From the NCBI GenBank assembly GCA_965206075.1, contig CBDBIS010000005.1, positions 3,155,041 through 3,219,040 of the forward strand: a DNA stretch of 64,000 bases, given 5' to 3'. The stretch's first letter is position 1; every line of letters begins with the position of its first letter. Of this stretch, positions 3,086 through 57,512 are shown piece by piece. The translations under genes and the position numbers were made by a program. The notes under the pieces were generated by a model, which did no database searches, had not been told where the DNA came from, and saw only the letters and a program-made list of their open reading frames with translations. The DNA comes from Alphaproteobacteria bacterium (GTDB lineage: Bacteria > Pseudomonadota > Alphaproteobacteria > Bin95).

Positions 3086-4535
<1,450 letters not shown>

Positions 4536-11109: not shown

Positions 11110-11352
11110 CGGGACGCCGTATGCGCTTATCTCCTTCCGGTCGGTATCCGGCGCACCCGCCGGCTCGGCCTCGCCCCGCCTGCCCCGCAGAAGCGGGGGC
11201 CGGCCGTGCGGCGCGGCGAGGCGCCGCCGGGTTGTGAGCAAGGGGATAAACGGGTGACGGTACAGACCGGATAGACGGGCAACAGTTTTCCTTCTTCGTT
11301 CGGATTCGAGCGAGGACATAGAAAAATTTTCATGTTTCGCCCGCCAGGGGGC

Positions 11353-11379
11353 TTGACTGGGAGAAAAGTGTAGTAGAAT
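11353..11379 (+). promoter_or_regulatory. sigma70-like promoter motif of module copy 1 (TTGACT-15 nt-TAGAAT)
   Basis: The same motif, spacing and GGGA..AAAGTG spacer recur at copies 3 and 4. The 15-nt spacer is shorter than optimal. Confidence 0.45.
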
Positions 11380-11391
11380 GCAGGATGAGAG

Positions 11392-11422
11392 AAGGCGGCT
11401 CTCCGGGGCCGCCTTTCGGCTT
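11392..11422 (+). terminator. terminator-like hairpin plus U-rich tail at the module 5' end; intron insertion site
   Basis: AAGGCGGC (11392-99) pairs with GCCGCCTT (11408-15) and is followed by TCGGCTT. Equivalent hairpins with UUUCCGCUUUUCU tails occur in copies 2 and 4. Confidence 0.45.
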
Positions 11423-12093
11423 GTGTGCCGAGCATGGCCAACAGCTTGGAGGTGCAAGTCCTCTATCCAGCCCGATGGCGGCGAAGGATTAGCGAAGCGC
11501 AAGGGCGTCGCCGCGAGGCGGGGTCTGAAGGAAGCGTGGAGCAAAGCCGCGACCCGATGGACAAGAACCGGATACGAGGCCTACCCGGCCGGACGAGCGA
11601 GCAAGCGATCGCGAAGTCCGCAGCCATCAAGGGCCGGGGTGGTAAATCCGGCGGGTGTGCGGTGAAGGCGGTTGGTCTTACCTCGGGAGGTCTGCGTCGT
11701 GTCCGGAACCCCCGGACTGAGCGGTTCCGCAAGGGCCGTGATCGCGGCGCAGAAGTCAGCAGAGGGCATAGTAGCCGGCCCCCCGGCGAAGGCCCGAACG
11801 ACGGACAGGGTTATTAGGACGGCAGGCTCATGCGGACCAAGCGGCAGAACATCCAGTTGGAACTGGCCTTGGAGCCGGAGGCGAGGGGTGAAGCCCGGAG
11901 CGCCGGAGACCGAGGGACCGAAGCCCGTATGGCGCGTGCCGACCCCGAACGCCCGGCGGCTGTCTTCGACAGGCTCGGCCTCGCCTCCCTGCGAGGCCGT
12001 TCCGCAGCTTAAATCCGTCGAACCGCCGTGTACGGACCCGTATGCACGGTGGTGTGGGAGGGGTGGAGCCGTGAGGCTCCCCCCTATCCCGAT
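11423..12093 (+). mobile_element. ORF-less (RT-deleted) group II intron, class C-like
   Basis: Boundaries follow from comparison with the uninterrupted copy 2. 5' end is GTGTG and 3' end is ...GAT. Hand-folded domain V (12022-12053, with CGC triad and 2-nt bulge) and domain VI (12056-12090, with GUGA loop and bulged A12086). An IEP remnant ORF lies inside. Confidence 0.75.
11830..12012 (+). pseudogene. remnant of the intron-encoded reverse transcriptase/maturase (N- and C-terminal stubs only)
   Basis: 60 aa: MRTKRQNIQLELALEPEARGEARSAGDRGTEA...FDRLGLASL. Resembles IEP termini as I remember them. No RT motifs are present. Confidence 0.55.
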
Positions 12094-12483
12094 TTCTGCG
12101 CAGGGAAACAAGGGCTGGGGCCGAAAAAAGCTCCGGCGGGAACGAACGGGAGACGTGCGCCTTCCGTCTCGCGCGCGCAATCAGCCGCGCGAACCGCGCC
12201 GGCGCTGACGCGCGCGGGCGGGCACGGGCGCGCGCGCAGGATACGCGCGCAAAAAGGGTCCCGCCGCCTGGGGGCGCCCAGGCCGGCAGCGGCGCGGACG
12301 GAATGGAGCGGAACGCGACGGAGCAAACGATATGCAGGAACGGAACCGCAGAGCTTCGGAGGCGGCATGAGGAACATGACAATCCATGACACATTGCAGG
12401 GGTCATTCATGAATCGCCCCGCCTGCGCGCTGGCGGAAGCGGCCGGCGACGCCCGGCAAGGCCCCGTCTGAGCAGCCATGGAT

Positions 12484-12840
12484 AACGGTTTTCTGCGTTC
12501 GTTCGGCTTCCGGGGCCGCCTTTCGCTTTTCTGCGCAGGGAAGCAATGGCTGGGGCCGCAAAAAGCCCCGGCGGGAACGGACAGGCGAGTTGCGCCTGCC
12601 GCCTCGCGTGCGCAATCGGGTGCGCGAGCCGCGCTGGCGCAAGACGCGGGGGCGGCAAGGGCGCGCATGCAGGATACGCGCGCAAAAAGGGTCCCGCTGC
12701 CTGAGGGCGGCCAGGCCGGTGGCGACGCGGACGGAATGGAGCGGAACGGAAAGCGACGGAGAGAACGACATGCAGGAACGGAACTGCGGAGCTTCGACGA
12801 TGGCATGGCGAACATGACACTTCATGACACAATGCAGGGG
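12484..12840 (+). repeat. GC-rich non-coding module, copy 2 (no promoter motif)
   Basis: Uninterrupted gccgcctttcgcttttctgcgcaggg junction. More diverged core, CATGGC/CATGAC/CATGAC at 12804/12813/12823, and TGCAGGGG ending at 12840. Confidence 0.75.
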
Positions 12841-12851
12841 TCTTCCATGAA

Positions 12852-12887
12852 CCTTCCCGCCCCGGATCGGGGTTCGGGGCGGGAAGG
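12852..12887. terminator. 13-bp GC hairpin between convergent module copy 2 and the amidase gene
   Basis: CCTTCCCGCCCCG...CGGGGCGGGAAGG. Possibly a bidirectional terminator. Related to the GTCGCCCCGG palindromic elements. Confidence 0.4.
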
Positions 12888-12957
12888 GGACTCATGCAAT
12901 GCCGATCTGCCGCCGGCAGCCGAGTGTATCCGGCAGTCCGCAAACGGGAGAGGCGGC

Positions 12958-14379: not shown

Positions 14380-14504
14380 GGCATTGAGGATCCGGTCTTT
14401 GGGAGCGGAACCTTACCAATAGTTCAGTGGCGCGTCGCGGAGCGGTTGGCTATATGCCGCGCCGACCGGAGCGGCCCGACAAGGCCGCCGGGATTGGGAA
14501 TGGA

Positions 14505-15470
14505 ATGTTGTCGCTGGTTGCCGCGCAGGGTCTGACCAAACGCTTCGATGCGCATGTGGCCGTGGACCGTATCGACCTGGAGGTCGGCGCGGGCGAGGTG
14601 CTGGGCTTTCTCGGGCCCAACGGCGCGGGCAAGTCCACGACGATGAAGATGATTGCGGGGTTTCTCGCCCCGACCGAGGGCCGCGCGGCGATCTGCGGCC
14701 ACGATGTGACCGACGATCCGATTCGGGCGCGGCGCAATCTCGGCTATCTGCCGGAAGGCGCGCCGCTCTACGGCGACATGACCGCAGGCGCCTTCCTCGC
14801 CTTCGTCGCCGCCATGCGCGGCCTTTCCGGTCGGCGGGGCCGCGCCGCCATCGGGCTTGCGGTCGAGCGCACCGCCCTCGCCGAGGTGCTGGCGCAGCCC
14901 ATCGACACGCTCTCCAAGGGTTTCAAGCGCCGCGTCGGCCTTGCCCAGGCGCTGCTGCACGACCCGCCGGCGCTGATCCTGGACGAGCCGACCGACGGGC
15001 TCGACCCGAACCAGAAACACGAAATGCGCGCGCTGATACGGGAAATCCGTCCCTCGAAGGCCATCGTGATCTCCACCCACATCCTCGAGGAGGTCGATGC
15101 CGTCTGCACCCGCGCGGCCATCATCTCCGGCGGCCGGCTGCTTGCGGACGCAGCACCTGGCGAACTGGCGGCACGGTCCCCGCTGAACAATGCCGTGTCC
15201 CTGACACTCGGCGCGCAGCACGCCGAAGCGGCCGCCGCGTCGCTGGGCGGGCTGGAGCGCGTGGAAGCGGTCCATCGCGAACCGGCGGGTCCGAACGCCG
15301 TGCGCCTGACCGCGCTTTCCCGGGACGGCCGGCCCATCCTTGCGGATGTCGGGCTGCTGGTTCGGGCGCACGGCTGGGAGGCGAGCGACCTGCGGACGGA
15401 AACCGGAGCGCTCGACGACGTGTTCCGGCGCATGACGCAGCCCGGTGAGGAGGCGCTTCGCAATGGCTAG
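14505..15470 (+). CDS. ABC transporter ATP-binding protein (GldA-like, ABC-2 type)
   Basis: Start at the internal ATG (MLSLVAAQGL...). Walker A GPNGAGKST, signature LSKGFKRR, Walker B LILDEPTDGLD. Confidence 0.85.
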   Translation: MLSLVAAQGLTKRFDAHVAVDRIDLEVGAGEVLGFLGPNGAGKSTTMKMIAGFLAPTEGRAAICGHDVTDDPIRARRNLGYLPEGAPLYGDMTAGAFLAFVAAMRGLSGRRGRAAIGLAVERTALAEVLAQPIDTLSKGFKRRVGLAQALLHDPPALILDEPTDGLDPNQKHEMRALIREIRPSKAIVISTHILEEVDAVCTRAAIISGGRLLADAAPGELAARSPLNNAVSLTLGAQHAEAAAASLGGLERVEAVHREPAGPNAVRLTALSRDGRPILADVGLLVRAHGWEASDLRTETGALDDVFRRMTQPGEEALRNG

Positions 15471-18214: not shown

Positions 18215-19329
18215 AGCTCCGCAGTTTCCTGGTCCTGCTGACCGTCACGGTCGCCACCGCCGGCGCGGCGGTTGCGGTTCTGCTGAACGAGCGCGTTCGC
18301 GGCGGCGATTCGGTCGCCGGCGCAATGCTGTATCCGGGCCTGCTCGACCGCGTGAACGACATCGACTTCGTGGAGGTCGCGACGACGGCCGACGGCACCG
18401 TGTCGGCCCGGCGCGAAGACGGGCGCTGGGGCGTCGTGCAGCGCCACGGCTACCCCGCCGACTTCAAGATGCTGAGCCGGATGCTTTACGACCTGGCTCG
18501 CCTGGAGTTGATCGAGCCGCGCACCGCCAAGCCGGCGCTCTATCCGAAGATCCGGGTCGAAGACCTCGGGGAAAAGAGCGCGCTCTCGATCCGCATTGTT
18601 GCGAAGGCGGGCGGCGAGACGGCGGCCGACCTGCTGGTTGGCTTTGCGCGCCCGGACGAGCTCGGCGGCGGCGTGTTCGTGCGCAAGAGCGGCGAAGCGC
18701 AATCCTGGCTCGCCAAGGGCGACTTCCAGCCGGTGCAGCTGCTGACGCGCTTCCTCGACCGCAATATCTGCAATGTGGAGCAGCGCCGCATCCGCCGGAC
18801 CCGCCTGACCCACGCCGACGGCGAGACGGTCACGGTTTTCAAGGCCGGGCCGGAGGAAACGGACTGGAAACTGGAAGAGCCGCCGGGCGAGGGGCGGAAG
18901 GCGAAAGCGAGCCACGAACTGTCGCCGCTGACGAGCTGGCTCGATTTCCTGATCTTCGACGATGTGCGCCCCGCCGCCGAAGTGGACTTCTCGGAGCCGC
19001 TGGTCTCCGGCCGGTTCGTCACCTTCGACGGACTTGTCGTCGAGGTGAAGATGGCCGAGGCGGACGACGATTACTGGGTAACGCTTTCCACCGTGCCGGG
19101 AACGCCGGACCCGCGCGTGCAGCCCTTGCTGGACCAGCGCAGGACGATGCAGGCCGACAAGCTCGAAGGGTCCCTGCAGATGGCGCTGAAGACGCCCGGC
19201 GAAGTCGCGGCCGAGATCGAGGAGATCGACGCCGCGGCCGGTGGCTGGGCATACCGGGTCACCGACTACAAGACGGACAAGTTCCGCACCCGCCTGGCCC
19301 AGGTCACGGAGGCCGCGGGCGAGAGCTAG
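18211..19329 (+). CDS. DUF4340 domain protein
   Basis: 372 aa with an N-terminal TM segment. 4-nt overlap with the GldG-like gene. Confidence 0.65.
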   Translation: MKLRSFLVLLTVTVATAGAAVAVLLNERVRGGDSVAGAMLYPGLLDRVNDIDFVEVATTADGTVSARREDGRWGVVQRHGYPADFKMLSRMLYDLARLELIEPRTAKPALYPKIRVEDLGEKSALSIRIVAKAGGETAADLLVGFARPDELGGGVFVRKSGEAQSWLAKGDFQPVQLLTRFLDRNICNVEQRRIRRTRLTHADGETVTVFKAGPEETDWKLEEPPGEGRKAKASHELSPLTSWLDFLIFDDVRPAAEVDFSEPLVSGRFVTFDGLVVEVKMAEADDDYWVTLSTVPGTPDPRVQPLLDQRRTMQADKLEGSLQMALKTPGEVAAEIEEIDAAAGGWAYRVTDYKTDKFRTRLAQVTEAAGES

Positions 19330-20056
19330 CCTCGCCGCGCGCGATGTCCAGGAACACCTCTTCCATGGTGCGCCGGCCGTAGCGCGCTATGAGGGCGTCG
19401 GGCGCGCCCCGGTCCACCAGCCGTCCGGCCTTCATCATCAGCACGTCGCGGCACAGCCGCTCGACCTCCAGCATGTTGTGCGAGGCGAGCAGGATGGTCG
19501 CGCCCGTCCGCTCCACATAGGCGGCGAGATAGGCGCGCACCCAGTCGGCGGTTTCCGGGTCGAGCGAGGCGGTCGGCTCGTCGAGAAGCAGCAGCCGGGG
19601 CTCGTTCACCAGCGCCTTGGCGAGCGCGAGGCGGGACTTCTGCCCCGCCGACAGCGTGCGCGTCCTCTGTTTCAGGAAGGGTGTTAGTTCCAGCGTTTCC
19701 GCCAGTTCCCGCACCTGCCGCCCCGCCCGCGCCACGCCGTAGAGGCGCGCATAGACCAGCAGGTTCTCCTCTGCCGTCAGCCGTCCGGGAAGCTCGACAT
19801 AGGGGGAGGAGAAGTTCATGCGCTCCAGTGCCCGGTAGCGGTTGCGGGTCATGTCGGCGCCGAGCGCATGCACCGTCCCGGAGGTGGGCAGCAGCAGGCC
19901 GAGCAGCATGGCGATGGTGGTCGTCTTGCCCGCCCCGTTGCCGCCGAGCAGCGCGACGATGCCGCCGGGCTCCAGGTCGAAGGTCAGCCCGTCCACGGCC
20001 TTCACGGGCCCGAACTCCTTCGAGAGGTCCCGAACCGAGACGGCCCATTCGCTCAT
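19304..20056 (-). CDS. ABC transporter ATP-binding protein with no adjacent permease
   Basis: Walker A GGNGAGKTT, signature LSAGQKSR, Walker B LLLDEPTASLD. Its 3' end overlaps the convergent DUF4340 gene by 26 nt. Confidence 0.85.
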   Translation of the reverse strand: MSEWAVSVRDLSKEFGPVKAVDGLTFDLEPGGIVALLGGNGAGKTTTIAMLLGLLLPTSGTVHALGADMTRNRYRALERMNFSSPYVELPGRLTAEENLLVYARLYGVARAGRQVRELAETLELTPFLKQRTRTLSAGQKSRLALAKALVNEPRLLLLDEPTASLDPETADWVRAYLAAYVERTGATILLASHNMLEVERLCRDVLMMKAGRLVDRGAPDALIARYGRRTMEEVFLDIARGEASSRPRPP

Positions 20057-21945: not shown

Positions 21946-22016
21946 CGCGCGCCGCCCTTCTCCTTTCCCGCCTGCGGGAGAGGCCGGAGAGGCCCCCTGC
22001 AGCGCGTCATGAGATG

Positions 22017-22886
22017 TCATGTTTTGTCATGCGGCGGGGTTGCGGCGGTGGCTTGCCGCCTGTCGGGGCCGGCGTTTCGGACGCGGGCGAGAGTGCGGGC
22101 GAGGGAGGCTTCCGTGCGGCGGTGCTGCCTTTCGTGCCATGCCGTGTATTCGGGCGAGGGCAGCTTGCCGACGAACTTCCGCCCGCTGACATGGCAGTCG
22201 ATCGGGCCGCCGAGGCCCCCGCCTATCGTGACCGGCCCGAACCGGCGCTCCTTGTCTTCCAGCCACGCCCGGAACTCGGGCGTCTCCTGGCTGCCGGCCC
22301 AGACCTCGCCGCCATAGTGGAACTCGTCCTCGCTGCCGTCATAGTCCGACACATAAGGGTCGGGCTCTTCGAACGGGTCGTCGAGACCGTCCAGAGGCTC
22401 CTCGACGGGTTCCGGTTCCGGTTCGGGCAGGTGCGCGGCGGCCCAGTCGAGCACGGCGAGGAGCTGGCGCAGATGGCTGAGCCGGGCGCGTCCGGCGCGG
22501 TGGCGTTCGGCAAGTGCGCGGTCGTCCTCCGGCGGCGGCCCGGCGCTTATACCAGCGGTCGTTGATCGGAACCTATGGTGATGGTCCCCACCGTCACCCC
22601 GGCCTCCGAGCCGGGGGCCAGCCTCGGTTCTCGCGGCAACTTCAGCGGTCGAGCCTGCTCTCCACCGGCTACGGCATCGTCGAGAGCCATGGATGGACCC
22701 CGGCTCTCCGCTTCGCTCCGGCCGGGGTGACGCAGAGGGAAAACCGGGCGGCAATCTCCATGAGTCACAAACCGGAGCCGCTGGTATTAGGTCTTCGGCA
22801 TAGGCTTCGGCGAGGGCTTCGGCGGCCGGCGCCAGCCCTGCGGCCAGCTTCGCCGCCAGTTGGGGGCGGGGGTCGGTTGCAGTCAT
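22017..22886 (-). CDS. hypothetical acidic protein (289 aa as it stands; 209 aa before the MITE insertion)
   Basis: ATG preceded by AAGGAGGA. High G/C at codon position 3 in codons 1-31 and again after the MITE, with poor coding character inside 22547-22789. No domain that I recognise. The track ORF extends upstream to 23453 through the non-coding core. Confidence 0.5.
   Translation of the reverse strand: MTATDPRPQLAAKLAAGLAPAAEALAEAYAEDLIPAAPVCDSWRLPPGFPSASPRPERSGEPGSIHGSRRCRSRWRAGSTAEVAARTEAGPRLGGRGDGGDHHHRFRSTTAGISAGPPPEDDRALAERHRAGRARLSHLRQLLAVLDWAAAHLPEPEPEPVEEPLDGLDDPFEEPDPYVSDYDGSEDEFHYGGEVWAGSQETPEFRAWLEDKERRFGPVTIGGGLGGPIDCHVSGRKFVGKLPSPEYTAWHERQHRRTEASLARTLARVRNAGPDRRQATAATPPHDKT
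22550..22786. mobile_element. 237-nt MITE with 9-bp TIR TACCAGCGG/CCGCTGGTA and 3-bp TSD TTA
   Basis: TSD copies at 22547-49 and 22787-89. Internal long palindrome CGTCACCCCGGCC...GGCCGGGGTGACG (22592-22732). Element plus TSD is 240 nt, so the host ORF stays in frame. Confidence 0.7.
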
Positions 22887-23111
22887 GGTTCCTCCTTGCC
22901 GGTCCGGGTCCCTTTTTTGCGCGCGTATCCTGCGTGCGCGCCTGCGCCCGCCTGCGCGCGTCTTGCGCCGGCGCGGTTCGCACGCCTGATTGCGCGCGCG
23001 AGACAGAGGACGCACGTCTCCCGCCGGTTTCTCAGGAGTTTTCAGAAAGTGGCGCCGCTCGGCCGCACAACGCCGGGGAAGCGGCCTCCGGATGCCCCTT
23101 CTCCCGCTCCC

Positions 23112-23138
23112 ATCATACACTACTTTTCCCAGGGTCAA
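23112..23138 (-). promoter_or_regulatory. sigma70-like promoter motif of module copy 3 (TTGACC-15 nt-TATGAT)
   Basis: Reverse complement of ggtcaa (23133-38) and atcata (23112-17). Divergent from the DUF1028 gene. Confidence 0.45.
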
Positions 23139-23328
23139 GCCCCAAACGGGAACAAAAGAGAAAAATAATGGAAATATTTCATGTTTCGCAGGGGTAGCAT
23201 CGCGTTCGGTGCCAGGCCTCCGTCTTCGCGCCGGCGCCGGTTGCGGCCGGGCTTGAAATGCGTTTCGATCCGGGAGGACACGGCTCCGGCGCGGTTCCCG
23301 GCGGCGCAGGGGCGGGGAGGAGGAACCG

Positions 23329-23997: not shown

Positions 23998-24029
23998 GCC
24001 GGGCCGTAGTGAAGGCGCCCCCAAGGCTT

Positions 24030-24132
24030 CCGTCGTCACCCCGGACCCCGATCCGGGATCCATCCCCCGGCCTCTCCACCGGGTTGAACCGGTTGCGGTT
24101 GGGCCCCGGATCGGGGTCCGGGGCGACGACGG
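24030..24132. repeat. palindromic GC-rich element (GTCACCCCGGACCCCGATCCGGG family)
   Basis: 28-nt arms at 24030-24057 and 24105-24132, between the convergent DUF1028 and maeB genes. Confidence 0.7.
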
Positions 24133-24193
24133 AAAGCAGCGCCGGCGGCTACCCGTCGATGGACAGTCGATCCGTTATGGATCGCGCCGTGCC

Positions 24194-26464
<2,271 letters not shown>

Positions 26465-26560
26465 TGCGCTTGCCCCCGGCCTTCCGGCTCGTTGCGGTCG
26501 CAAGAATCCTAGTCCCGCGCCGCGCCCTTTGCCAATGCCGCGCCGGGAAGGCCGGACCGG

Positions 26561-26938
26561 CTACCAAAGGCGCTGGACTTCGTACCGGTCGAACACTGGG
26601 TCGATAGACACAATCGGGATGCCAAGTCCTGTCGCCTGGGCGATGAGCATCCGGTCGAACGGGTCACGATGCGGCCCCGGCAGCCGTCCCGCTCTCTCGG
26701 CATCGGCGACCGTGATCGAAATCTGCTCGAACCCTTCCCGCGCGATGAGCCCGGCGATGTCGTCGCCGATGTCCGGCAGCCTGCCAAGCCGGGCTTTGTT
26801 CGCAATTTCCCATGCGGACGCGGCGCTGACCGCCACATCATTCGCCTCGTCTCCAATCGTCCGGCGAGCGAAGCGCGACAAGCGGGTATTGTCCGTCAGC
26901 CACCAGAGAAAGGCGTGGGTATCCAGCAATATCCGCAC
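26561..26938 (-). CDS. vapC: type II toxin VapC (PIN domain)
   Basis: 125 aa (MRILLDTHAFLWW...DPFDRMLIAQA) with the PIN acidic residues. Confidence 0.8.
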   Translation of the reverse strand: MRILLDTHAFLWWLTDNTRLSRFARRTIGDEANDVAVSAASAWEIANKARLGRLPDIGDDIAGLIAREGFEQISITVADAERAGRLPGPHRDPFDRMLIAQATGLGIPIVSIDPVFDRYEVQRLW

Positions 26939-26944
26939 GGGCGG

Positions 26945-27208
26945 TCAGTCTTCCGAGCGCCCTTCCCAGGCCCTCAGCTCCTCTTCCGGCAGGGAATCGA
27001 ACAATGCGCTGTCCGAAATTTGGAACCTGCCCTTCAGGGCGCCCGGTCGCCGGTGCGTCTTCGGCTGGCCGGTCGCTCGCGATGCGCAGGCCACAAGACG
27101 AACGGCCGGCCTGCCCCGGCGGGCAATCACGACTTCCTCGCCGCGCTCGGCTTGGGCGACCAGCGAAGACAAGCGCGCCCTTGCCTCGCCGATGTTGACG
27201 GTGGACAT
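26945..27208 (-). CDS. Phd/YefM-type antitoxin partner of VapC
   Basis: 87 aa (MSTVNIGEARARLSSLVAQAERGEEVVIARRGRPAVRLV...). Ends 6 nt upstream of vapC. Confidence 0.7.
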   Translation of the reverse strand: MSTVNIGEARARLSSLVAQAERGEEVVIARRGRPAVRLVACASRATGQPKTHRRPGALKGRFQISDSALFDSLPEEELRAWEGRSED

Positions 27209-27282
27209 GACCGTTACCTCGAAACGCAGATTCAACCTACCTGCCGGACCGGCAGCGTCAAGGCCGGAACGATGCGGCGGGC

Positions 27283-28383
27283 CTAACCGTCCACCGATTC
27301 GCAATGCTGCGAGAAGGCGGGCAGGACATTTTCGGCGAGGCGCTGCATGGAGGCGCGGCAGAGGTCCGGGTCCTCCCAGTCGTGCATGCCGATCAGCAAG
27401 GTGCCGAACGTGCCGATCTCCTCGCGGAGCGCGACCAGCCGGTCGAGAACGGTCGCCGCCGTGCCGCAGATCGGGATTTCGGCGACCGCCTCTTCCACGT
27501 CGAGCAGTTCGTTCAACTCTGCGGCGGGCGCGTCCGCGATGGCCTTCACCTCCGGCAGCCGGCGCAGGCTGCGCAGGTAACGGAAGTAGAAGTGGAACAG
27601 ACCGTCCGGGTCCCCGAGAATATCGCGGGCCTGCCCCTCGCTCTCCGTCACCAGCAGGTTGCGCGCCACCCGCCAGACCGACGGGTCCGCTGGGCGACCC
27701 GCCTGCTCCGCCGCTTCGGCGTAGAGCGGCCAGTGGGTCGCCACGTCGCGCGAGGGGATGAAGTTCGCCGAGATGGGTATCCAGCCCCGCCCGCCGCAGA
27801 CGCCCGCCGAGCCGGAATTGGCCGAGACCATCGCCATGGCGATGGGCGGGTGCGGGTGCTGGTAGGGCTTGGAAATCAGGCCGACGCCGTGGCGCGGATA
27901 GACCGCTTCGTCGATGGCGATGTCCCACCACTCGTTCTCGAAGCGGTAAGGCGGCTCGCCGCGCCAGAGATCGAGCACGATGTCGATGGCGGCGAGCATC
28001 ATGCGCTGGCGTTCCGCCGGGTCGTGGTGGCCGTACATTTCCGCGTCGCTGACGAGGCCGCCCGGCCCGATGCCGAACAGGAACCGGCCCTCCGACAGCT
28101 GGTCGAAGAGCGCCACATGGCTCGCGACCGTGACCGGATGGTGGTGGGGAATGTTGATGACGCCGGTGCCGAAGCGGATCGAGCGCGTTTCGCGGATGAG
28201 CGTCGCGAGGAAGATCAGCGGCGAGGCGATCTGCTCGACCTTCGAGGTGAAATGCTCGCCGATCCAAGCCTCGGAATAGCCGAGCCGGTCGGCCAGCAGG
28301 ATCGCCTCGCGGTCCTCCTCAAGGGTCTGGAGAAACGGCTTTTCGGGTCGATGCAGGGGCATCGAGAACAGGCCGAGCTTCAT
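27283..28383 (-). CDS. LLM-class flavin-dependent oxidoreductase
   Basis: 366 aa. Luciferase-like monooxygenase pattern (EAWIGEHFTS...). Paralog of 45023-46123. Confidence 0.8.
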   Translation of the reverse strand: MKLGLFSMPLHRPEKPFLQTLEEDREAILLADRLGYSEAWIGEHFTSKVEQIASPLIFLATLIRETRSIRFGTGVINIPHHHPVTVASHVALFDQLSEGRFLFGIGPGGLVSDAEMYGHHDPAERQRMMLAAIDIVLDLWRGEPPYRFENEWWDIAIDEAVYPRHGVGLISKPYQHPHPPIAMAMVSANSGSAGVCGGRGWIPISANFIPSRDVATHWPLYAEAAEQAGRPADPSVWRVARNLLVTESEGQARDILGDPDGLFHFYFRYLRSLRRLPEVKAIADAPAAELNELLDVEEAVAEIPICGTAATVLDRLVALREEIGTFGTLLIGMHDWEDPDLCRASMQRLAENVLPAFSQHCESVDG

Positions 28384-39862: not shown

Positions 39863-39921
39863 GGCTTGCAGCCTTCCTTCGTTTCCGTTCTCCGCTCCCG
39901 GCCCGCAGGGACGGGAGACCT

Positions 39922-40308
39922 CCCTATGTGTCATGAAGCGTCATGTTTTGTCATGCGATGTCATGTTCGCCATGCCCTTGCCGGCGTTGCGCCGTGCCAT
40001 TCCGGCATATCGTTTTCCATCGCGTTCCGCCTTCCTCCGTTCCGCCGTCGCCGGCAAAGCCTCCCATGCGCCCGGACCCTTTTTGCGCGCGTATCCTGCG
40101 TGCGTGCCCGCGCCCGCCTGCGCGCGTTGGCGCCGGCGCGGTTCGCGCACCTGATTGCGCGCGCGAGACAGCGGACGCACTTCGCCTGTCCGTTCCCGCC
40201 GGGGCTTTTTTCCGGCCCCAGCCATTGCTTCCCTCAGCAGAAAAGCGGAAAGGCGGCCCCGGGAGCCGCCTCTCTGCCGCCATTGTAGCACACTTTTCCC
40301 AATGTCAA
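39922..40308 (-). repeat. GC-rich module, copy 4, forming the leader of the VOC-amidase-AtzH-like operon
   Basis: Promoter motif at 40308-40282, hairpin with UUUCCGCUUUUCU, and a core nearly identical to copy 1. GTCATG at 39930/39940/39950/39960, then CCATG. Confidence 0.8.
40282..40308 (-). promoter_or_regulatory. sigma70-like promoter motif of module copy 4 (TTGACA-15 nt-TACAAT)
   Basis: Reverse complement of tgtcaa (40303-08) and attgta (40282-87). TG lies 1 nt upstream of the -10 (extended -10-like). Confidence 0.5.
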
Positions 40309-40332: not shown

Positions 40333-40536
40333 TCAGTCCCGGTAGTCCCGCACCGCCTTCGGGTCGAGCCGGTCGGCCGGGACGAGGCGGTAATGCCGCT
40401 CTTCCACGACCTTCAGCCGGATTGCGGCCGCCTCAATCTCTTTGCGCTCGAATTCGAACTCGGTAATTCCCTCGCTGTAATGATCGAAAAATATCGTTTC
40501 GATTATCGCTCTATAGTCGACTCGCAGTTTAGCCAT
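40333..40536 (-). pseudogene. 67-codon ORF after dcm, possibly the N-terminal stub of the cognate restriction endonuclease
   Basis: MAKLRVDYRAIIETIFFDHYSEGITEFEFERKEIEAAA... The first ~40 codons are A/T-rich at position 3 and the remainder is G/C-rich like host DNA. Start overlaps the dcm stop by 8 nt. Confidence 0.35.
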
Positions 40537-41932
40537 AAGCTCTCCGCTCTGCGACGAATTCACGTTCGATATCCACCTGTTTGCGCTTCTTGGCGCCGCT
40601 CTTGCGATCACGGCGGTTGGGTCTGGCCTCTACGCCGAAATATTGGGCCGCGGCGGGAGCATCGAGCACTAACAGGGCAGTGTCGCCGAGCGGTATGGAA
40701 GCCTCGGGCCGGGCGGGGTTCGCACCGAGGGCCTCGACGACGTTGCCGGCGATCGCGCGGGCGAGCGGCGGGGGCACGGCATTGCCGATCTGGCGCGCAC
40801 CGTGCCATTTGGTGACATGGAAGCGGAACCAGTCCGGGAAGCCGTGCAGCCGGGCCATCTCGCGCACGGTCACGCAGCGGTCGTGGCGGTAGTGAATCGG
40901 CCGCGGGCTGGTGAAGGCGCCCCGCGCCCCGTCCGTGCCGGCGCGGAGCGTGTTCGAGACGCCTGTTTCCGCGAGCTTGAAGAACCGGCTGATCGGCTCG
41001 ACCGCGCCCGCTTCCGTTTCACGGAACCGGCGGCGCGAAATCTCCGTGTGCCGTGTGCGGGAACTAGCGGTCAGCAAGGCGGGATTCCACTCGCGCACAT
41101 AGCCGTAATGCCATGCGTCGTTTGCAAGGCAGCGCAGCGATGCCGCATAGGCCGAAGGCTCTCCGAACGTCCTCGTCTCCACGGAGTCGGAGCCGCACAG
41201 CGCGTCGAAACCCTCGGCGTCGGGAAGGTCGCCCAGCGCATCGGCACAGGTCGGCCCAACGGGTAGGGCGTCCACGCGCCGCCGCTTGCCGGCGATACCG
41301 GTCAGCGGTGCGGGATAGTCGGGCAGGCGCTCGCCCTTTCGCGCGCCGAGCAGGATCAACCGTTCCCGGCTCTGCGGTACGCCGAAATTGCCGGCGTTCA
41401 GGACCCGCCAGGGGACCCGCACCTCGTAGCCGGCGTCGGAAAACGCCTCGACAAGTTCGTCGAGGAGGGCGCGATGCTTGCCGACCGTCAGCCCTTTGAC
41501 ATTCTCGAAGACGAATGTGCGGGCGTCCAGTTCCGCAACGAGGCGCACGAACTCCCGGACCAGCCGGTTGCGCGGGTCGTCGAGAATGCGGTGGCCGATG
41601 AGGGAGAATCCCTGGCAGGGCGCGCCGCCGAACACGCAATCGACCCGACGACCGCCAAGTCCGGCCGCTCGCGCAATTCCGGCCCCGGAAAGGTCCTCTA
41701 CCGCGCAGGGCACGATGGCCGTCCGGGGAAAGTTGAACTTGTGGACCGCGCAATGCACCGGGTCGATTTCGACTGCGGCGGCGACGTCGAAACCGGCCTG
41801 CTCGAAGCCGAGGCTGAGGCCGCCGGCGCCGGCGAACAGGTCGATCCCGATGGGCCTCACAGTGCTGCGCTTCCGGATGCCGGTGCCATTCTGCAGGATA
41901 TTAGCGCGCCTACCGCTAGATGTCGATCGCAT
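40529..41932 (-). CDS. dcm: DNA (cytosine-5)-methyltransferase
   Basis: Motifs FAGAGG (I), GGAPCQGFS (IV), ENV, QSRERL and GNAVPP (X). Start at the internal ATG overlapping the vsr 3' end. Confidence 0.9.
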   Translation of the reverse strand: MRSTSSGRRANILQNGTGIRKRSTVRPIGIDLFAGAGGLSLGFEQAGFDVAAAVEIDPVHCAVHKFNFPRTAIVPCAVEDLSGAGIARAAGLGGRRVDCVFGGAPCQGFSLIGHRILDDPRNRLVREFVRLVAELDARTFVFENVKGLTVGKHRALLDELVEAFSDAGYEVRVPWRVLNAGNFGVPQSRERLILLGARKGERLPDYPAPLTGIAGKRRRVDALPVGPTCADALGDLPDAEGFDALCGSDSVETRTFGEPSAYAASLRCLANDAWHYGYVREWNPALLTASSRTRHTEISRRRFRETEAGAVEPISRFFKLAETGVSNTLRAGTDGARGAFTSPRPIHYRHDRCVTVREMARLHGFPDWFRFHVTKWHGARQIGNAVPPPLARAIAGNVVEALGANPARPEASIPLGDTALLVLDAPAAAQYFGVEARPNRRDRKSGAKKRKQVDIEREFVAERRAYG

Positions 41933-42341
41933 TTTCCGCGTTGTCCACAAAATCTTGTAGCCGTTTCGCCAGAACATCCGGGTCGCGGGTCTCGCATTGC
42001 CAGACGGTCAGCACGCTCCAGCCCAATGACTCTATTTGTTCCTTCTTGGTTCTATCTCTTTTCCTGTTTTCGTCAAGTTTGGGTTTCCAGTATTCGAGGC
42101 GGGATTTCGGCAGCCGCCCTTTCGGGCAGTCGTGGCCGTGCCAGAAGCAGCCATGCACGAAGATCGCCTTGCGCCGGGAAATGAAGGCGATATCGGGTCT
42201 GCCGGGGAGGTCCTTGCGGTGCAGGCGGTACCGGTAGCCCATGGCGTGCAGCAGCCGGCGCACGGCCAGTTCGGGTCCTGTGTGCTTGCTCCCGACCGCC
42301 TGCATGATGCGGCGGCGCTGCTCCGGGGTGCGCGTGTCCAT
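41916..42341 (-). CDS. vsr: very short patch repair endonuclease
   Basis: MDTRTPEQRRRIMQAV... and FVHGCFWHGH motifs. Start at the internal ATG of track ORF 41916..42410. Confidence 0.85.
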   Translation of the reverse strand: MDTRTPEQRRRIMQAVGSKHTGPELAVRRLLHAMGYRYRLHRKDLPGRPDIAFISRRKAIFVHGCFWHGHDCPKGRLPKSRLEYWKPKLDENRKRDRTKKEQIESLGWSVLTVWQCETRDPDVLAKRLQDFVDNAENAIDI

Positions 42342-42850: not shown

Positions 42851-42995
42851 GCCGCCGCGCTTCAACCCTCTAATTTCCCCCGTCTCCCGCAGCCCCTTCC
42901 GGACGGCCTTGGCCGCATTCTTCCTGCCCGTGCTTGCCATGCTGGCAGCGTTCGGGCTGCTTTCCATCGACATGTACCTGCGGAGCCTGCCGGCC
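42851..42995 (+). pseudogene. duplicated 5' region of bcr (upstream ~56 nt plus the first ~29 codons), truncated
   Basis: Aligns with 43711-43853. Encodes (M)AAFFLPVLAMLAAFGLLSIDMYL.., then diverges and terminates. Confidence 0.65.
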
Positions 42996-43051
42996 TTCAG
43001 GCGGTTGTCGTCACTTGTCATATATTAACGCGCGGCGTTATCATTCACGGG

Positions 43052-43676: not shown

Positions 43677-43766
43677 GCGGGACGCGCGAGAATCCGCCGG
43701 ACCCCGCCTTGCCGCCGCGCGGCCACCGCCTAATTTCCCCGTCTCCCGAAGCCCTCCCGGATTGCC

Positions 43767-44945
43767 TTGGCCGCATTCTTCCTGCCCGTGCTTGCCGTGC
43801 TGGCGGCGTTCGGGCCGCTTTCCATCGACATGTATCTGCCGAGCCTGCCGGCCATCGGGCGGGAACTGGGCGCGTCCGCCGGCGGTGTGCAGCTCACGCT
43901 CTCCGCCTTCTTCGTCGGCTTCGGCGTCGGGCAGCTCCTCTACGGCCCGCTCTCGGACCGCTACGGGCGGCGGCCGATGCTGGTCTTCGGCGTCTCGGTC
44001 TATCTGGCGGCAAGCGCGGGCGCGGCCTTTGCGCCGGATATCGGGGCGCTGACCGCGGCGCGCTTCTTCCAGGCGCTCGGCGGCGGGGCGGCGACGGTGA
44101 TCGCGCGGGCCTCGGTGCGCGACCGCCATTCTGGCGCGGAAGCCGCGCGCATGCTCTCCACGCTCATGCTCATCATGGGCGCGGCTCCCCTGCTTGCGCC
44201 CTCGCTCGGCGCGCAGATACTCCTCTTCGCGGACTGGCGGGCGATCTTCCTGGTCCTCGCCGCCTGGGGCGTGCTTGCGCTGCTGGCGGTCCTCTTCCTG
44301 CTGCCGGAGACGCGGCCTCCCGAGACGCGCATCCGCGCCGGCCTCGGCTCGATCTTCGTGAACTATGCCCGCCTCCTCTCGGAGCGGCGCACACTCGGCT
44401 GCATGCTCGCAAGCGGCGGCGCCTTCGCCGGCATGTTCGCCTACATCTCCGGCACGCCCTTCGTGTTCATGGAGGTGTTCGGCGTCTCGCCCCGGACCTA
44501 CGGGCTGCTGTTCGCCGTCCATATCCTCGCGATCATGGGCGGCGCCTGGACCAACCGCCGGCTGGTCGCCCGCTTCGGTCCCGGCGGCATGATGGTGCGG
44601 GGCACATGGCTGCTTCTCGCCGCGGGCCTTGCGCTCGTCCTCGTCGTGCTGCTGCTGCCGGGGAGCCTCGCCGCCATCGTCGCCGCGCTCTTTTGTTTCA
44701 TGTTCGCCCTCAACCTGATCGCCGCCAACACCATCGTCATCGCGACGGCCGACAAGGCGGAGATCGCCGGCACCGTCATCGCGCTGATCGGCGCGGGGCA
44801 TTTCGCGCTCGGCACGCTGTCTGGCCTTGCGGTCGGCCAGTTCCACGACGGCACGGCGCTGCCGCTCGCGCTCACGGTCGCGGCGTGCGGGCTGGTGTCC
44901 TTCTCCGCCAACCGCTGGCTGGTGGGGGCGCCCAAGGCAGATTGA
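43767..44945 (+). CDS. Bcr/CflA-family MFS efflux transporter
   Basis: 392 aa, 12-TM pattern with LSIDMYLPSLP and GPLSDRYGRRP motifs. Apparent TTG start. Confidence 0.85.
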   Translation: MAAFFLPVLAVLAAFGPLSIDMYLPSLPAIGRELGASAGGVQLTLSAFFVGFGVGQLLYGPLSDRYGRRPMLVFGVSVYLAASAGAAFAPDIGALTAARFFQALGGGAATVIARASVRDRHSGAEAARMLSTLMLIMGAAPLLAPSLGAQILLFADWRAIFLVLAAWGVLALLAVLFLLPETRPPETRIRAGLGSIFVNYARLLSERRTLGCMLASGGAFAGMFAYISGTPFVFMEVFGVSPRTYGLLFAVHILAIMGGAWTNRRLVARFGPGGMMVRGTWLLLAAGLALVLVVLLLPGSLAAIVAALFCFMFALNLIAANTIVIATADKAEIAGTVIALIGAGHFALGTLSGLAVGQFHDGTALPLALTVAACGLVSFSANRWLVGAPKAD

Positions 44946-55658: not shown

Positions 55659-55763
55659 CCGTCGCCCCGGCCGGAGCGGAGCGGAGAGCCGGGGCCCATC
55701 TCCCGCCTGTGCGATATGCGCGACGGTCCGGAGATGGGCCCCGGATCGGGTCCGGGGCGACGA
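55659..55763. repeat. palindromic GC-rich element (GTCGCCCCGG...CCGGGGCGAC family)
   Basis: Outer arms at 55661-70 and 55752-61. Inner arms GAGCCGGGGCCCATCTCC / GGAGATGGGCCCCGGATC. Confidence 0.65.
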
Positions 55764-56224: not shown

Positions 56225-56610
56225 CGCCGCCCGCCCCGGCGAAAGCAGGGGTCAGTGACTCCGGCGTCGTTTCTGTTGGCGGCGTTCCTTGCGGCGCCGC
56301 TCCGTTTCAGGTGAGTGAACCGGCCGGGCCGTTTTTCGCCCCGCCGGAAGTGTCGTTTTCGTTTCAGGTCCAGCGACCCGGAGCCTCCCGCCGGCCGGCG
56401 GACGCGCGCACCTGTCCGGTTGGGCGTCCGCCCTCGACGCAGCTCCCGCATTCCTCATGAAACGCCGGCCGGCGCCCCGGTTCAAATCCACGTCATCGCC
56501 TCGCTTCCTCGCTGTTGGCGCGGGTTTGAGGGGTATATAGGGAACAAACGGGCGGAATGCAAGCTAAAGGGAGGAATTGTTACCGAATTTTGTGGTGCGA
56601 GGCTCCACCT

Positions 56611-56735
56611 GCCGCTTCCGCCGGCGCGGAAGCGGCCCCCTCACCCGGCCTCTCCCCGCTTGCGGGGAGAGGGGAATGCGGTGGCACTGCTTCTCCCTCC
56701 TTCGCTTGCGAGGGAGGGCCGGGGAGGGAGGCTGT
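56611..56735 (+). repeat. REP/RIME-like GC-rich repeat (gccgcttccgccggcgcggaagcgg...ctccccgcttgcggggagagggg)
   Basis: Nested hairpins. A direct-orientation relative lies at 57262-57512. Confidence 0.7.
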
Positions 56736-56769: not shown

Positions 56770-57261
56770 TCAGCCCCCCGCCGGCCGCCGGTAGAGCCGG
56801 TAGCGGCCCGGCGCGACGCCCTCCGGCAGCGGCTCCTCCGTCCAGCCGGCAAGCGCCATGGGCTGGTCGGCGGCGAGAATGGCGCCGGGGGCCGTAAGGC
56901 GCGGCAGGAGGGGGGCCAGCGCCTTTGCCAGCGCCAGCGAGGCGGCCTTGTCGCCGGTGCCGATGTCGGCGTGGACGAGGGCTGCGGGGGCGGGCAGGCG
57001 GACTTGGCTGAGCGTGTCGAGGAAGTCTCCGACGATGAGGCGGTCCTCGGGCGGGGTGCAATCGGGGTGGGCGGCCGGGGCGCGCTCGAACACGAAAATG
57101 TCCCTGTCGGGCAGGCGGGCGCGGAGATGGTCGTAGGTGCGCCCGTTGCCGAGGCCGAGCTCCAGCACCGGGCCGGGCACGCCCCGGATGAGCGCCGCCG
57201 CCCGGTCGAGGCAGGCGCGCTGGGCCGTGAGGCGGCGGATGGCGCTGTCGAGCCGGGTCAT
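56770..57261 (-). CDS. class I SAM-dependent methyltransferase (small)
   Basis: 163 aa from the internal ATG (MTRLDSAIRRLTAQRACLD...VLELGLGNGRTYDHL...). Confidence 0.65.
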   Translation of the reverse strand: MTRLDSAIRRLTAQRACLDRAAALIRGVPGPVLELGLGNGRTYDHLRARLPDRDIFVFERAPAAHPDCTPPEDRLIVGDFLDTLSQVRLPAPAALVHADIGTGDKAASLALAKALAPLLPRLTAPGAILAADQPMALAGWTEEPLPEGVAPGRYRLYRRPAGG

Positions 57262-57512
57262 GCCGGGGCGTCGCCGCCGCTTCCGCTGGCGCGGAAGCGG
57301 CCCCCCACCCGGCCTCCCCCGCAAGCGGGGGAGGAGAAAGCGGTGGCCGCCCTGCGAGCGGGGGAGGGGATTGAGAGGGCGGGGCTCCTTCCCGTCCGGC
57401 GGCAGACGGTCCCTTTTCTCCCCTCCCGCTTGCGGGAGGGGTTGGGGGAGGGTCTCCCGGCGTGCCGGGCTTTTGCCGGGCTTTGCCCGCAAGCGGGGGC
57501 CACGGTCTCCCC
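57262..57512 (+). repeat. REP/RIME-like GC-rich repeat cluster
   Basis: gccgcttccgctggcgcggaagcgg ccccccacccggcctcccccgcaagcgggggagg... plus further GGGAGGGG/CCCCTCCC hairpins. Confidence 0.7.

Follow-up and report, generated by a model that had tools for sequence, protein, structure and literature searches.

Promoter-bearing intergenic repeats such as the Correia, ERIC, and REPIN elements, also described as "putative mobile promoters" (PMC3575422), and the long and short forms of mobile elements are the kinds of described system nearest to the repeat family analyzed here; nothing described matches the element or its protein. The family lies in a 64-kb stretch of alphaproteobacterial DNA (contig CBDBIS010000005.1), which we call the window. 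It is composite there, consisting of a multicopy gene cassette (copy 3), three derivatives without an open reading frame (ORF; copies 1, 2, and 4), and two insertions nested within copies, one an ORF-less group II intron and the other a miniature inverted-repeat transposable element (MITE), and the cassette family is restricted to an uncultured lineage of the Alphaproteobacteria. The best explanation overall, and one we regard as probable, is a lineage-restricted multicopy gene cassette accompanied by ORF-less derivatives, with its own promoter and putative protein-binding iterons.

Like the Correia, ERIC, and REPIN elements, this family is multicopy and intergenic, and combines a promoter-like motif with hairpins; it lies beside unrelated genes, its presence differs from one related genome to another, and no transposase accompanies its short form. 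However, those elements are 100- to 200-bp palindromic units with terminal inverted repeats, whereas the present one measures 400 to 1,150 bp and lacks such repeats, and it differs further in its directional architecture, its protein-encoding full form, and its phased iteron array. With pairs of MITEs and autonomous insertion sequences (ISs) it has in common long coding and short noncoding forms that share both ends, a high copy number, and insertion polymorphism, but here there are no inverted termini and no recognizable transposase, the short form is not an internal deletion, and the tandem junctions are heterogeneous. Paralogous, sometimes tandem, promoter-equipped noncoding units are also found among small RNAs (sRNAs), such as AbcR1/2 and CcsR1-4/"cuckoo" ar14 of the Alphaproteobacteria and the Csr/Rsm RNAs. 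The 3′ half of the short type is GGA-rich, as in CsrB, RsmY, and RsmZ, but its units have no Rfam match and are much longer, carry a terminator at the 5′ rather than the 3′ end, and lack CCUCCUCCC loops. Finally, plasmid Rep iterons, lambda Int arm sites, and OmpR/PhoB repeats resemble it in having short direct repeats at one helical turn, in two to five copies of variable number; CATGACA is not known to match any of their consensus sites.

Repeat finding, BLAST, and nhmmer profiles agreed on exactly four related copies in the window, at the places given by a first-pass annotation made from the letters: copy 1 (11283-12430, plus strand), copy 2 (12487-12887, plus), copy 3 (21994-23190, minus), and copy 4 (39895-40308, minus). 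The 18-mer CAGGATACGCGCGCAAAA had 4 occurrences against 0.08 expected. Pattern searches recovered the promoter-like motif TTGACN-15 nt-TAnnAT three times (0.00 expected), in copies 1, 3, and 4 but not in copy 2, and confirmed the proposed phasing of CATGAC units at about 10 bp, since CATGAC-N4-CATGAC matched seven times (0.22 expected), each time inside one of the copies. The end motif TGCAGGGG closes copies 1, 2, and 3, as proposed, whereas copy 4 carries ATAGGGAGG in that place. The annotation was right in recognizing a modular, genuine, and so far undescribed repeat family, with no Rfam match and no terminal inverted repeats. It had also described copies that align over most of their length, a shared hairpin plus UUUCGCUUUUCUGC module, a variable segment of about 100 nt, and indels that break every reading frame, and from these a noncoding family conserved at the nucleotide level. 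The last four points hold for the short copies, whose indels are of 1, 2, and 5 nt and whose invariant columns are clustered, but not for copy 3: its 5′ leader differs, its middle segment is about 870 nt of protein-coding ORF plus a 237-bp MITE, its frame is intact once the MITE is excised, and it encodes a conserved 209-amino-acid (aa) protein. The first point did not hold, because copies 1 and 3 do not align in this way with the short copies.

The complete unit is about 1.15 kb long and is represented in the window by copy 3, in which a promoter-like motif, a GC-rich leader of about 215 nt, a Shine-Dalgarno sequence, the 209-aa ORF, and a CATGACA array follow one another on the minus strand. 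Homology detected by nhmmer starts at 23188, and the promoter together with its AT-rich upstream region spans 23112..23190, with a single AACATGAA unit in direct orientation at 23185-23178 and TTGACC-15 nt-TATGAT at 23138-23112. The leader (22887..23105), examined by alignment with homologous loci and by a consensus fold, has gene-type 5′ hairpins and includes the core (23023-22906) and the Shine-Dalgarno sequence AAGGAGG (22897-22891), with an ATG 4 nt further on. The ORF (22017..22886) ends within the iteron array (21994..22031), whose CATGAC units lie at 22031, 22021, and 22011, and the stop codon TGA (22019-22017) falls inside the second unit; TGCAGGGG follows at 22001-21994. As it stands the ORF encodes 289 aa. 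A 237-bp MITE, which has TACCAGCGG/CCGCTGGTA as its terminal inverted repeats, has together with the TAA that it duplicated (22547..22786, minus) added 240 bp in frame and without a stop codon, leaving the host ORF open, and its excision yields an intact frame of 209 aa with a third-position G+C fraction of 0.82. A frame-preserving alignment across many copies, which the annotation had named as the mark of a protein, was obtained for copy 3 only, and we conclude from its conservation that this ORF is a real, multicopy, orphan gene. The MITE represents a family with these terminal repeats and a TAA target duplication, of which related ends were also seen at 55660-55700 of the window, at 3534-3557 of L016, and at about 1998-2211 of L028 (L numbers denote loci fetched from other genomes), where a copy lies in the AT-rich upstream region of another cassette.

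The same architecture was found in three other alphaproteobacterial genomes (L027, L028, and L030), which repeat the order of promoter, leader, Shine-Dalgarno sequence, ORF, and array, although the identity of the L027-L030 proteins to P0001, the window-type protein, is no more than about 60%. In each, an AT-rich upstream region is followed by TTGAC-15 nt-TATGAT or TATTAT and then by a leader of about 200 nt with the same strings (e.g., CGCGCAATCAGGCGYGCGAACCGCGCC); CATGACAAAACATGACATCTCATGACA overlaps the stop codon, and a second array often lies 25 to 80 nt downstream. The mean column identity of the leaders of copy 3, L027, L028, and L030 was 79%, about equal to that of the coding sequence at the nucleotide level. 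Judged from these sequences, the multicopy gene has its regulatory shell in the promoter, the core, and the CATGAC array. In L028, which comes from a 5.46-Mb genome, an IS21-family element (3100-3440) abuts the 3′ end of a cassette ORF at the expected position of the array; it comprises IstB and a 486-aa ORF and has repeated TGATTGTCGCGG motifs.

The reconstructed 209-aa protein had 174 homologues at an E value of ≤1e-3, with family lengths of 190 to 220 aa, and an alignment of 36 of the family's sequences contained 19 invariant and many near-invariant columns. In its 289-aa form the window ORF shows 100% identity to P0225, encoded in a 3.99-Mb genome, and the window therefore belongs to that genome. 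The genome (a 3,989,992-bp contig) holds at least 11 distinct paralogues and a 5.46-Mb genome at least 9, some of them more than 90% identical. A profile search of 1.84 billion representative proteins gave only 102 matches, mostly fragments, and the family is narrow. The protein had no match in Pfam, NCBIfam, PADLOC, or PDB sequences, a single weak match to a family of unknown function in PHROGs, and none by tblastn in plasmid and phage collections. AlphaFold models predict a helical hairpin at the N terminus, followed by an acidic linker and then by two tandem repeats of a β-hairpin plus helix, the helices being basic. A Foldseek search with the full model (mean predicted local distance difference test [pLDDT] score, 72.7) found no match in PDB and BFVD, and the C-terminal domain model (pLDDT, 86.5; EEH-EEH fold) retrieved nothing from PDB at an E value of <0.4. 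The frequent C terminus PPHDKT, directly followed by the stop, is encoded by the array, and other ends, such as NPAA and HDIS, trace to the same array in a different frame or with variant units.

The repeated unit of the array is (A)ACATGACA, present in two to five copies with a 10-bp period. In the window, AACATGAM matched 10 times against 0.91 expected (11-fold), with 7 of the 10 matches inside the elements, and the single related unit AACATGAA upstream of the promoter is inverted in copy 1 and direct in copy 3. As a side effect of the 10-nt period, each of the three frames contains both a TGA and an ATG. Short direct repeats phased at one helical turn typically mark sites where proteins bind cooperatively along one face of the DNA, and the two tandem repeats with basic helices make the cassette protein an economical candidate for the iteron binder. 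From the sequence and the consensus sites, we rejected the array as a Pho box, whose CTGTCAT is similar on the reverse strand but has a period of 11 bp against the 10 bp here, and as a sigma-54 or extracytoplasmic function (ECF) promoter, for which the spacings are wrong.

Copies 1, 2, and 4 have retained both core and array, and copies 1 and 4 the promoter as well; a GGA-rich segment of about 100 nt takes the place of the ORF. Two modules are specific to this short type, a terminator-like hairpin with a U tract just past the predicted start and the GGA-rich, purine-rich segment. Copy 1 begins with a conserved AT-rich flank (11283..11352, plus), which is common to L019 and in part to the stretch upstream of copy 2 and holds an inverted iteron-like unit (11329-11336, minus). 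The promoter-like motif TTGACT-15 nt-TAGAAT (11353..11379) and the terminator-like hairpin GGCGGCTC-TCCG-GGGCCGCC with its T-rich tail (11394..11422) come next, the latter forming the end of the intron's 5′ exon. Beyond the intron lie the remainder of the short-type leader with the TTCTGCGCAGGGAA..GGGGCCGAAAAAAGCTCC hairpin (12094..12146), the core (12147..12262), the noncoding GGA-rich middle (12263..12365), and the array of CATGAG, CATGAC, and CATGAC at a period of about 10 bp with the tail TCATTCATGAATCGCCC (12366..12419; TGCAGGGG at 12395-12402). The core, with the hairpin TCGCGCGCG-CAATCAG-CCGCGCGA and the string GCAGGATACGCGCGCAAAAAGGG, is common to all copies and to the gene-type loci of other genomes. 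Just past copy 1, at 12419-12458, we observed a GC-rich palindromic REP-like repeat (..CCGCTTCCGC..GCGGAAGCGG..) that recurs at 56596-56635 and 57255-57300 and, in another genome, at 347-480 of L027, with 87 to 97% identity.

Copy 2 (12487..12887, plus) is a promoter-less tandem duplicate of copy 1 that includes about 25 nt of 5′ flank and has lost about 95 nt including the promoter region. Its parts are the 5′-flank homologue (12487-12510), the right arm of the hairpin with the T tract (12510-12535), the core (12583-12695), the GGA-rich middle (12696-12803), the array (12804-12828), TGCAGGGG (12833-12840), and a tail, with a perfect 13-bp hairpin at 12852-12887. Copy 4 (39895..40308, minus), 70 nt upstream of a codirectional glyoxalase-family gene, consists of the promoter-like motif (40308-40282), the terminator-like hairpin (40274-40248; an intrinsic-terminator-like call with a 12-bp stem) with CGCTTTTCTG, the core (40187-40074), the GGA-rich middle (40073-39975), and an array (39974-39930) in which four CATGAC units accompany a degenerate one, followed by ATAGGGAGG and a hairpin. 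Directly upstream of copy 4 lie a 92-aa ORF without a Pfam match (40333-40611, minus) and a C-5 cytosine DNA methyltransferase gene (40529-41977, minus; Pfam PF00145, E = 8.9e-61), which together may form a mobile restriction-modification module.

Removal of 671 nt makes copy 1 colinear with copies 2 and 4, and these nucleotides are an ORF-less group II intron (11423..12093, in the orientation of copy 1). Three Rfam models matched it colinearly, namely RF02001 (134.6 bits; 11507-11676), RF01998 (51.7 bits; 11719-11794), and RF00029 (45.2 bits; 12021-12093), and it runs from GUGUG at 11423 to GAU at 12093, in agreement with group II introns in its domains (I-IV and V/VI) and its GUGYG/AY ends. 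At the gathering threshold these intron matches were the only ones that Rfam covariance models gave; at an E value of ≤5, copies 1/2, 3, and 4 gave chance-level matches far below the cutoffs. The statement that the element belongs to no Rfam family is thus correct for the element itself, but this strong intron inside copy 1 had been missed. There is one intron copy in the window, with a domain IV of about 225 nt and no reverse transcriptase ORF. ORF-less bacterial introns are reported to rely, as a rule, on the protein of a related intron at another place in the genome, and no related intron with a reverse transcriptase was found in the window. The intron starts 9 nt past the GC hairpin (11394-11413), which is followed by a T-rich tract and is homologous to the terminator-like hairpin of copy 4, and so lies just downstream of a terminator-like stem-loop, the insertion site of class C (IIC) introns. 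It resembles these introns in its terminator-adjacent site, sense orientation, GUGUG...AU termini, and domains V and VI, and differs from them in being without an intron-encoded protein. IIC introns insert after intrinsic-terminator motifs, and ORF-less introns have been described as rare in bacteria (PMC4424553).

The GGA motif occurs 6 to 9 times per ~95 nt in the middles of the short type (mean, 1.8); in copy 1 a 92-nt stretch holds 9 of them, the background mean being 1.75, and 19 of 12,782 windows reach this count. Invariant columns are clustered in the short copies, the longest run being 15 columns, which 16 of 10,000 shuffles reached, and this clustering argues for constraint on specific motifs. 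Because the indels break the frame and there is no codon-position bias, we judged the short type to be noncoding. A 15-codon micro-ORF (MQERNRKASPAAWRT and a stop) with a GGAGG Shine-Dalgarno sequence, its frame kept in eight copies, was rejected, given premature stops in two copies and no third-position bias, its changes being spread about equally over all codon positions. Outside the window, an exact 18-mer scan of GTDB species genomes found the short type in one other metagenome-assembled genome, COS4_bin_55 (Alphaproteobacteria bacterium), so that its known distribution is a lower bound, and all seven JGI metagenome matches to the 18-mer were chance matches. In COS4_bin_55 the short type is present in L019 (complete), L004 (a tandem pair), L016, and L017. 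It keeps the core and array there, as well as the promoter-like motif in L019, and the longer matches are 81 to 84% identical to copies 1 and 2 and less so to copy 4.

The short copies might instead be stand-alone regulatory RNA genes, a paralogous sRNA family and possibly a protein sponge, derived from the orphan gene's promoter and leader, as the first-pass annotation had supposed in calling them stand-alone transcripts. This alternative, which we think unlikely, would account for the 6 to 9 A(N)GGA-like motifs in the 3′ half, which recall CsrB/RsmY/RsmZ (GGA is enriched about 5-fold), for the promoter-like motif kept in copies 1 and 4 and in L019, for the clustered invariant blocks and a minimum-free-energy z-score of -2.68 for copy 4, and for a tandem arrangement of noncoding units like that of sibling sRNAs. 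However, a strong terminator-like hairpin about 15 nt past the predicted start would abort most transcripts, copy 2 lacks a promoter, and an intron interrupts copy 1. The covariation term over leader, core, and short type was about zero, with few sequences available, and gives the proposed RNA-level function no support; G-U pairs and one compensatory change were confined to the hairpin whose CAAUCAG loop is invariant. No reliable structure places the GGA motifs in the exposed hairpin loops expected of a Csr/Rsm sponge RNA. Rfam, including the Csr/Rsm families, gave no match, and tblastn found no csrA in the window and the fetched loci, which is weak evidence given the small sample.

Equally doubtful is the view that the short copies are functionless relics of duplicated, gene-less cassettes and look conserved because of recency or gene conversion. 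It would explain the missing promoter of copy 2, the interrupted copy 1, the heterogeneous tandem junctions, and a ratio of nonsynonymous to synonymous substitution rates (dN/dS) that is close to 1 even in full copies. On the other hand, a short type with the same boundaries and GGA segment is present in two genomes at 70 to 91% pairwise identity with long invariant blocks kept, and the terminator hairpin and GGA segment, which do not derive from the ORF, are themselves conserved.

Copies 1 and 2 occupy an accessory block (11116..12945, plus) that L037, from a related 3.94-Mb genome whose amidase is 86% identical, lacks at the orthologous intergenic site between the DUF427 and amidase genes. 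There, DUF427 and the amidase gene converge with 12 nt between their stops, compared with 1.84 kb here. L037 aligns to 18885-12955 and 11115-6628 of the window with 3 nt between the alignments, and its empty site reads TGA-CGGGAC-AAAGGC-TCA, whereas the window block is bounded by CGGGAC...CGGGAG. The element is therefore accessory. In L036, from a closer relative (amidase 96% identical), a different neighbor is found at precisely this point, beside copy 2, and copy 3 lies at the point where synteny with L032 and L035 ends, a rearrangement breakpoint. The cassettes are thus accessory DNA, present or absent at orthologous sites and located at synteny breakpoints.

These observations could also suit a transposable element, with the 209-aa protein a novel transposase or recombinase acting on CATGACA subterminal repeats and the short copies nonautonomous and MITE-like, and we rate this as improbable. 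The high copy number with paralogues over 90% identical, the presence/absence polymorphism with CGGGAC/CGGGAG around the inserted block, the position of copies at breakpoints, and the inverted unit at the 5′ end of copy 1 opposite direct units at its 3′ end would all fit. Against this, terminal inverted repeats and a target-site duplication, as expected of an IS or MITE, were not found, the 5′ unit is direct in copy 3, the protein has neither a catalytic signature nor detectable similarity to transposases or recombinases, the inserted block is not one clean element but extra flanking DNA plus two tandem copies, and plasmid and phage collections gave no match. By far the least probable is a cis-acting 5′ leader, riboswitch, or attenuator for the downstream gene, since, although codirectional genes follow copy 4, L017, L027, and L031 and the succession of promoter and terminator is reminiscent of an attenuator, it fits poorly with copies 1/2, copy 3, and L030, which face convergent genes, and with downstream genes that are mutually unrelated, a full form that has its own ORF, and the absence of an Rfam match.

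Several results weigh against the gene-cassette explanation that we prefer. The standard sigma-70 scan, which covers spacers of 16 to 18 nt, does not call the promoter because its spacer is 15 nt, a suboptimal length for sigma-70. The dN/dS among copies was 0.56 to 0.87, indicating weak constraint on the protein, which appears to be evolving fast or to be weakly constrained. No sequence or Foldseek match, even for the well-modeled C-terminal domain, ties the protein to DNA binding, and an AP2/integrase arm-binding fold, considered for the motif G[ST]xxTxE, was rejected at an hhalign probability of 0.9% and with no Foldseek match at an E value of <0.4. The ends are not sharp: copy 3, copy 4, and the copy 1+2 block all lacked terminal inverted repeats, and the only flanking repeat is a weak, imperfect 6-mer, CGGGAC/CGGGAG, around the whole block. 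As to the origin of the short type, its middle segment has no detectable similarity to the ORF, with local alignment scores equal to those of shuffles, so that an internal deletion of the gene was rejected and the short type is not a simple deletion derivative. Moreover, the tandem junction of L004 differs from that of copies 1 and 2, which points to recombination or duplication around the arrays and favors these over a transposition step.

Under the gene-cassette explanation, each cassette would be transcribed from its own predicted promoter and full copies would make the protein. The short copies would make either a terminated RNA of about 40 nt, the hairpin lying about 15 nt past the predicted start, or a read-through RNA of about 350 to 400 nt. 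The phased iterons and the single upstream unit may be sites for a sequence-specific protein, and the most economical candidate, on the predicted structure, would be the cassette's own two-repeat protein, acting in autoregulation and/or recognition of the cassette ends. Copies may multiply by duplication and recombination or by some still unknown transposition step, the short copies being nonautonomous passengers or RNA-only forms. Within the window, copy 2 is a tandem duplicate that lost its promoter with the adjoining DNA, copy 1 was later invaded by the intron just past its terminator-like hairpin, and copy 3 was hit by the MITE. More speculatively, and in our opinion with little likelihood, the cassette could be a selfish unit in which the orphan two-repeat protein recognizes its own CATGACA iterons, as DNA or RNA, and promotes cassette duplication or maintenance, with GGA-rich RNA derivatives that depend on or titrate the protein. 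If true, this would be a protein/iteron/decoy-RNA system without a described counterpart.

Some further features of the window were observed in passing. Between the convergent DUF1028 and malic-enzyme genes lie about 200 bp of hairpin-rich DNA (23998-24193), where L032 has 24 nt; a 23-nt hairpin string in it (24103-24125) is common to the 3′ hairpin of copy 2 (12859-12881). A 756-bp insertion between the malic-enzyme and luciferase-like genes (26544-27299) is absent from L032, L033, and L034. Of the two small minus-strand ORFs that it contains, one (26561-26938; MRILLDTHAFLWW...) resembles, by eye only, a VapC toxin with a PIN domain and the other (MSTVNIGEARARLSSLV...) an antitoxin of the Phd/YefM type. 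Unrelated to the cassette, a direct repeat of 111 nt with 91% identity occurs at 42894-43004 and 43752-43862, its copies 858 nt apart. A 103-nt inverted repeat, 73% complementary, lies at 14906-15008 and 19556-19658, in or near two opposed ORFs (14427-15470, an ABC ATPase, and 19304-20056) that are probably paralogous genes.

This family illustrates that a "noncoding repeat family" read by eye can prove to be the regulatory shell of a multicopy orphan gene, and that length differences between copies can be nested mobile elements, in this case a group II intron and a MITE. The analysis also supplies reagents for testing: the protein of 209 aa, the 7-bp iteron, and an ORF-less group II intron that occurs naturally in a terminator-like target. 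At least 11 near-identical copies per 4-Mb genome, alike in their conserved promoter, leader, and iteron array, their variable presence, and their location at synteny breakpoints point to an undescribed self-propagating or recombination-promoting unit, and such a unit would shape genome structure in this uncultured alphaproteobacterial clade.

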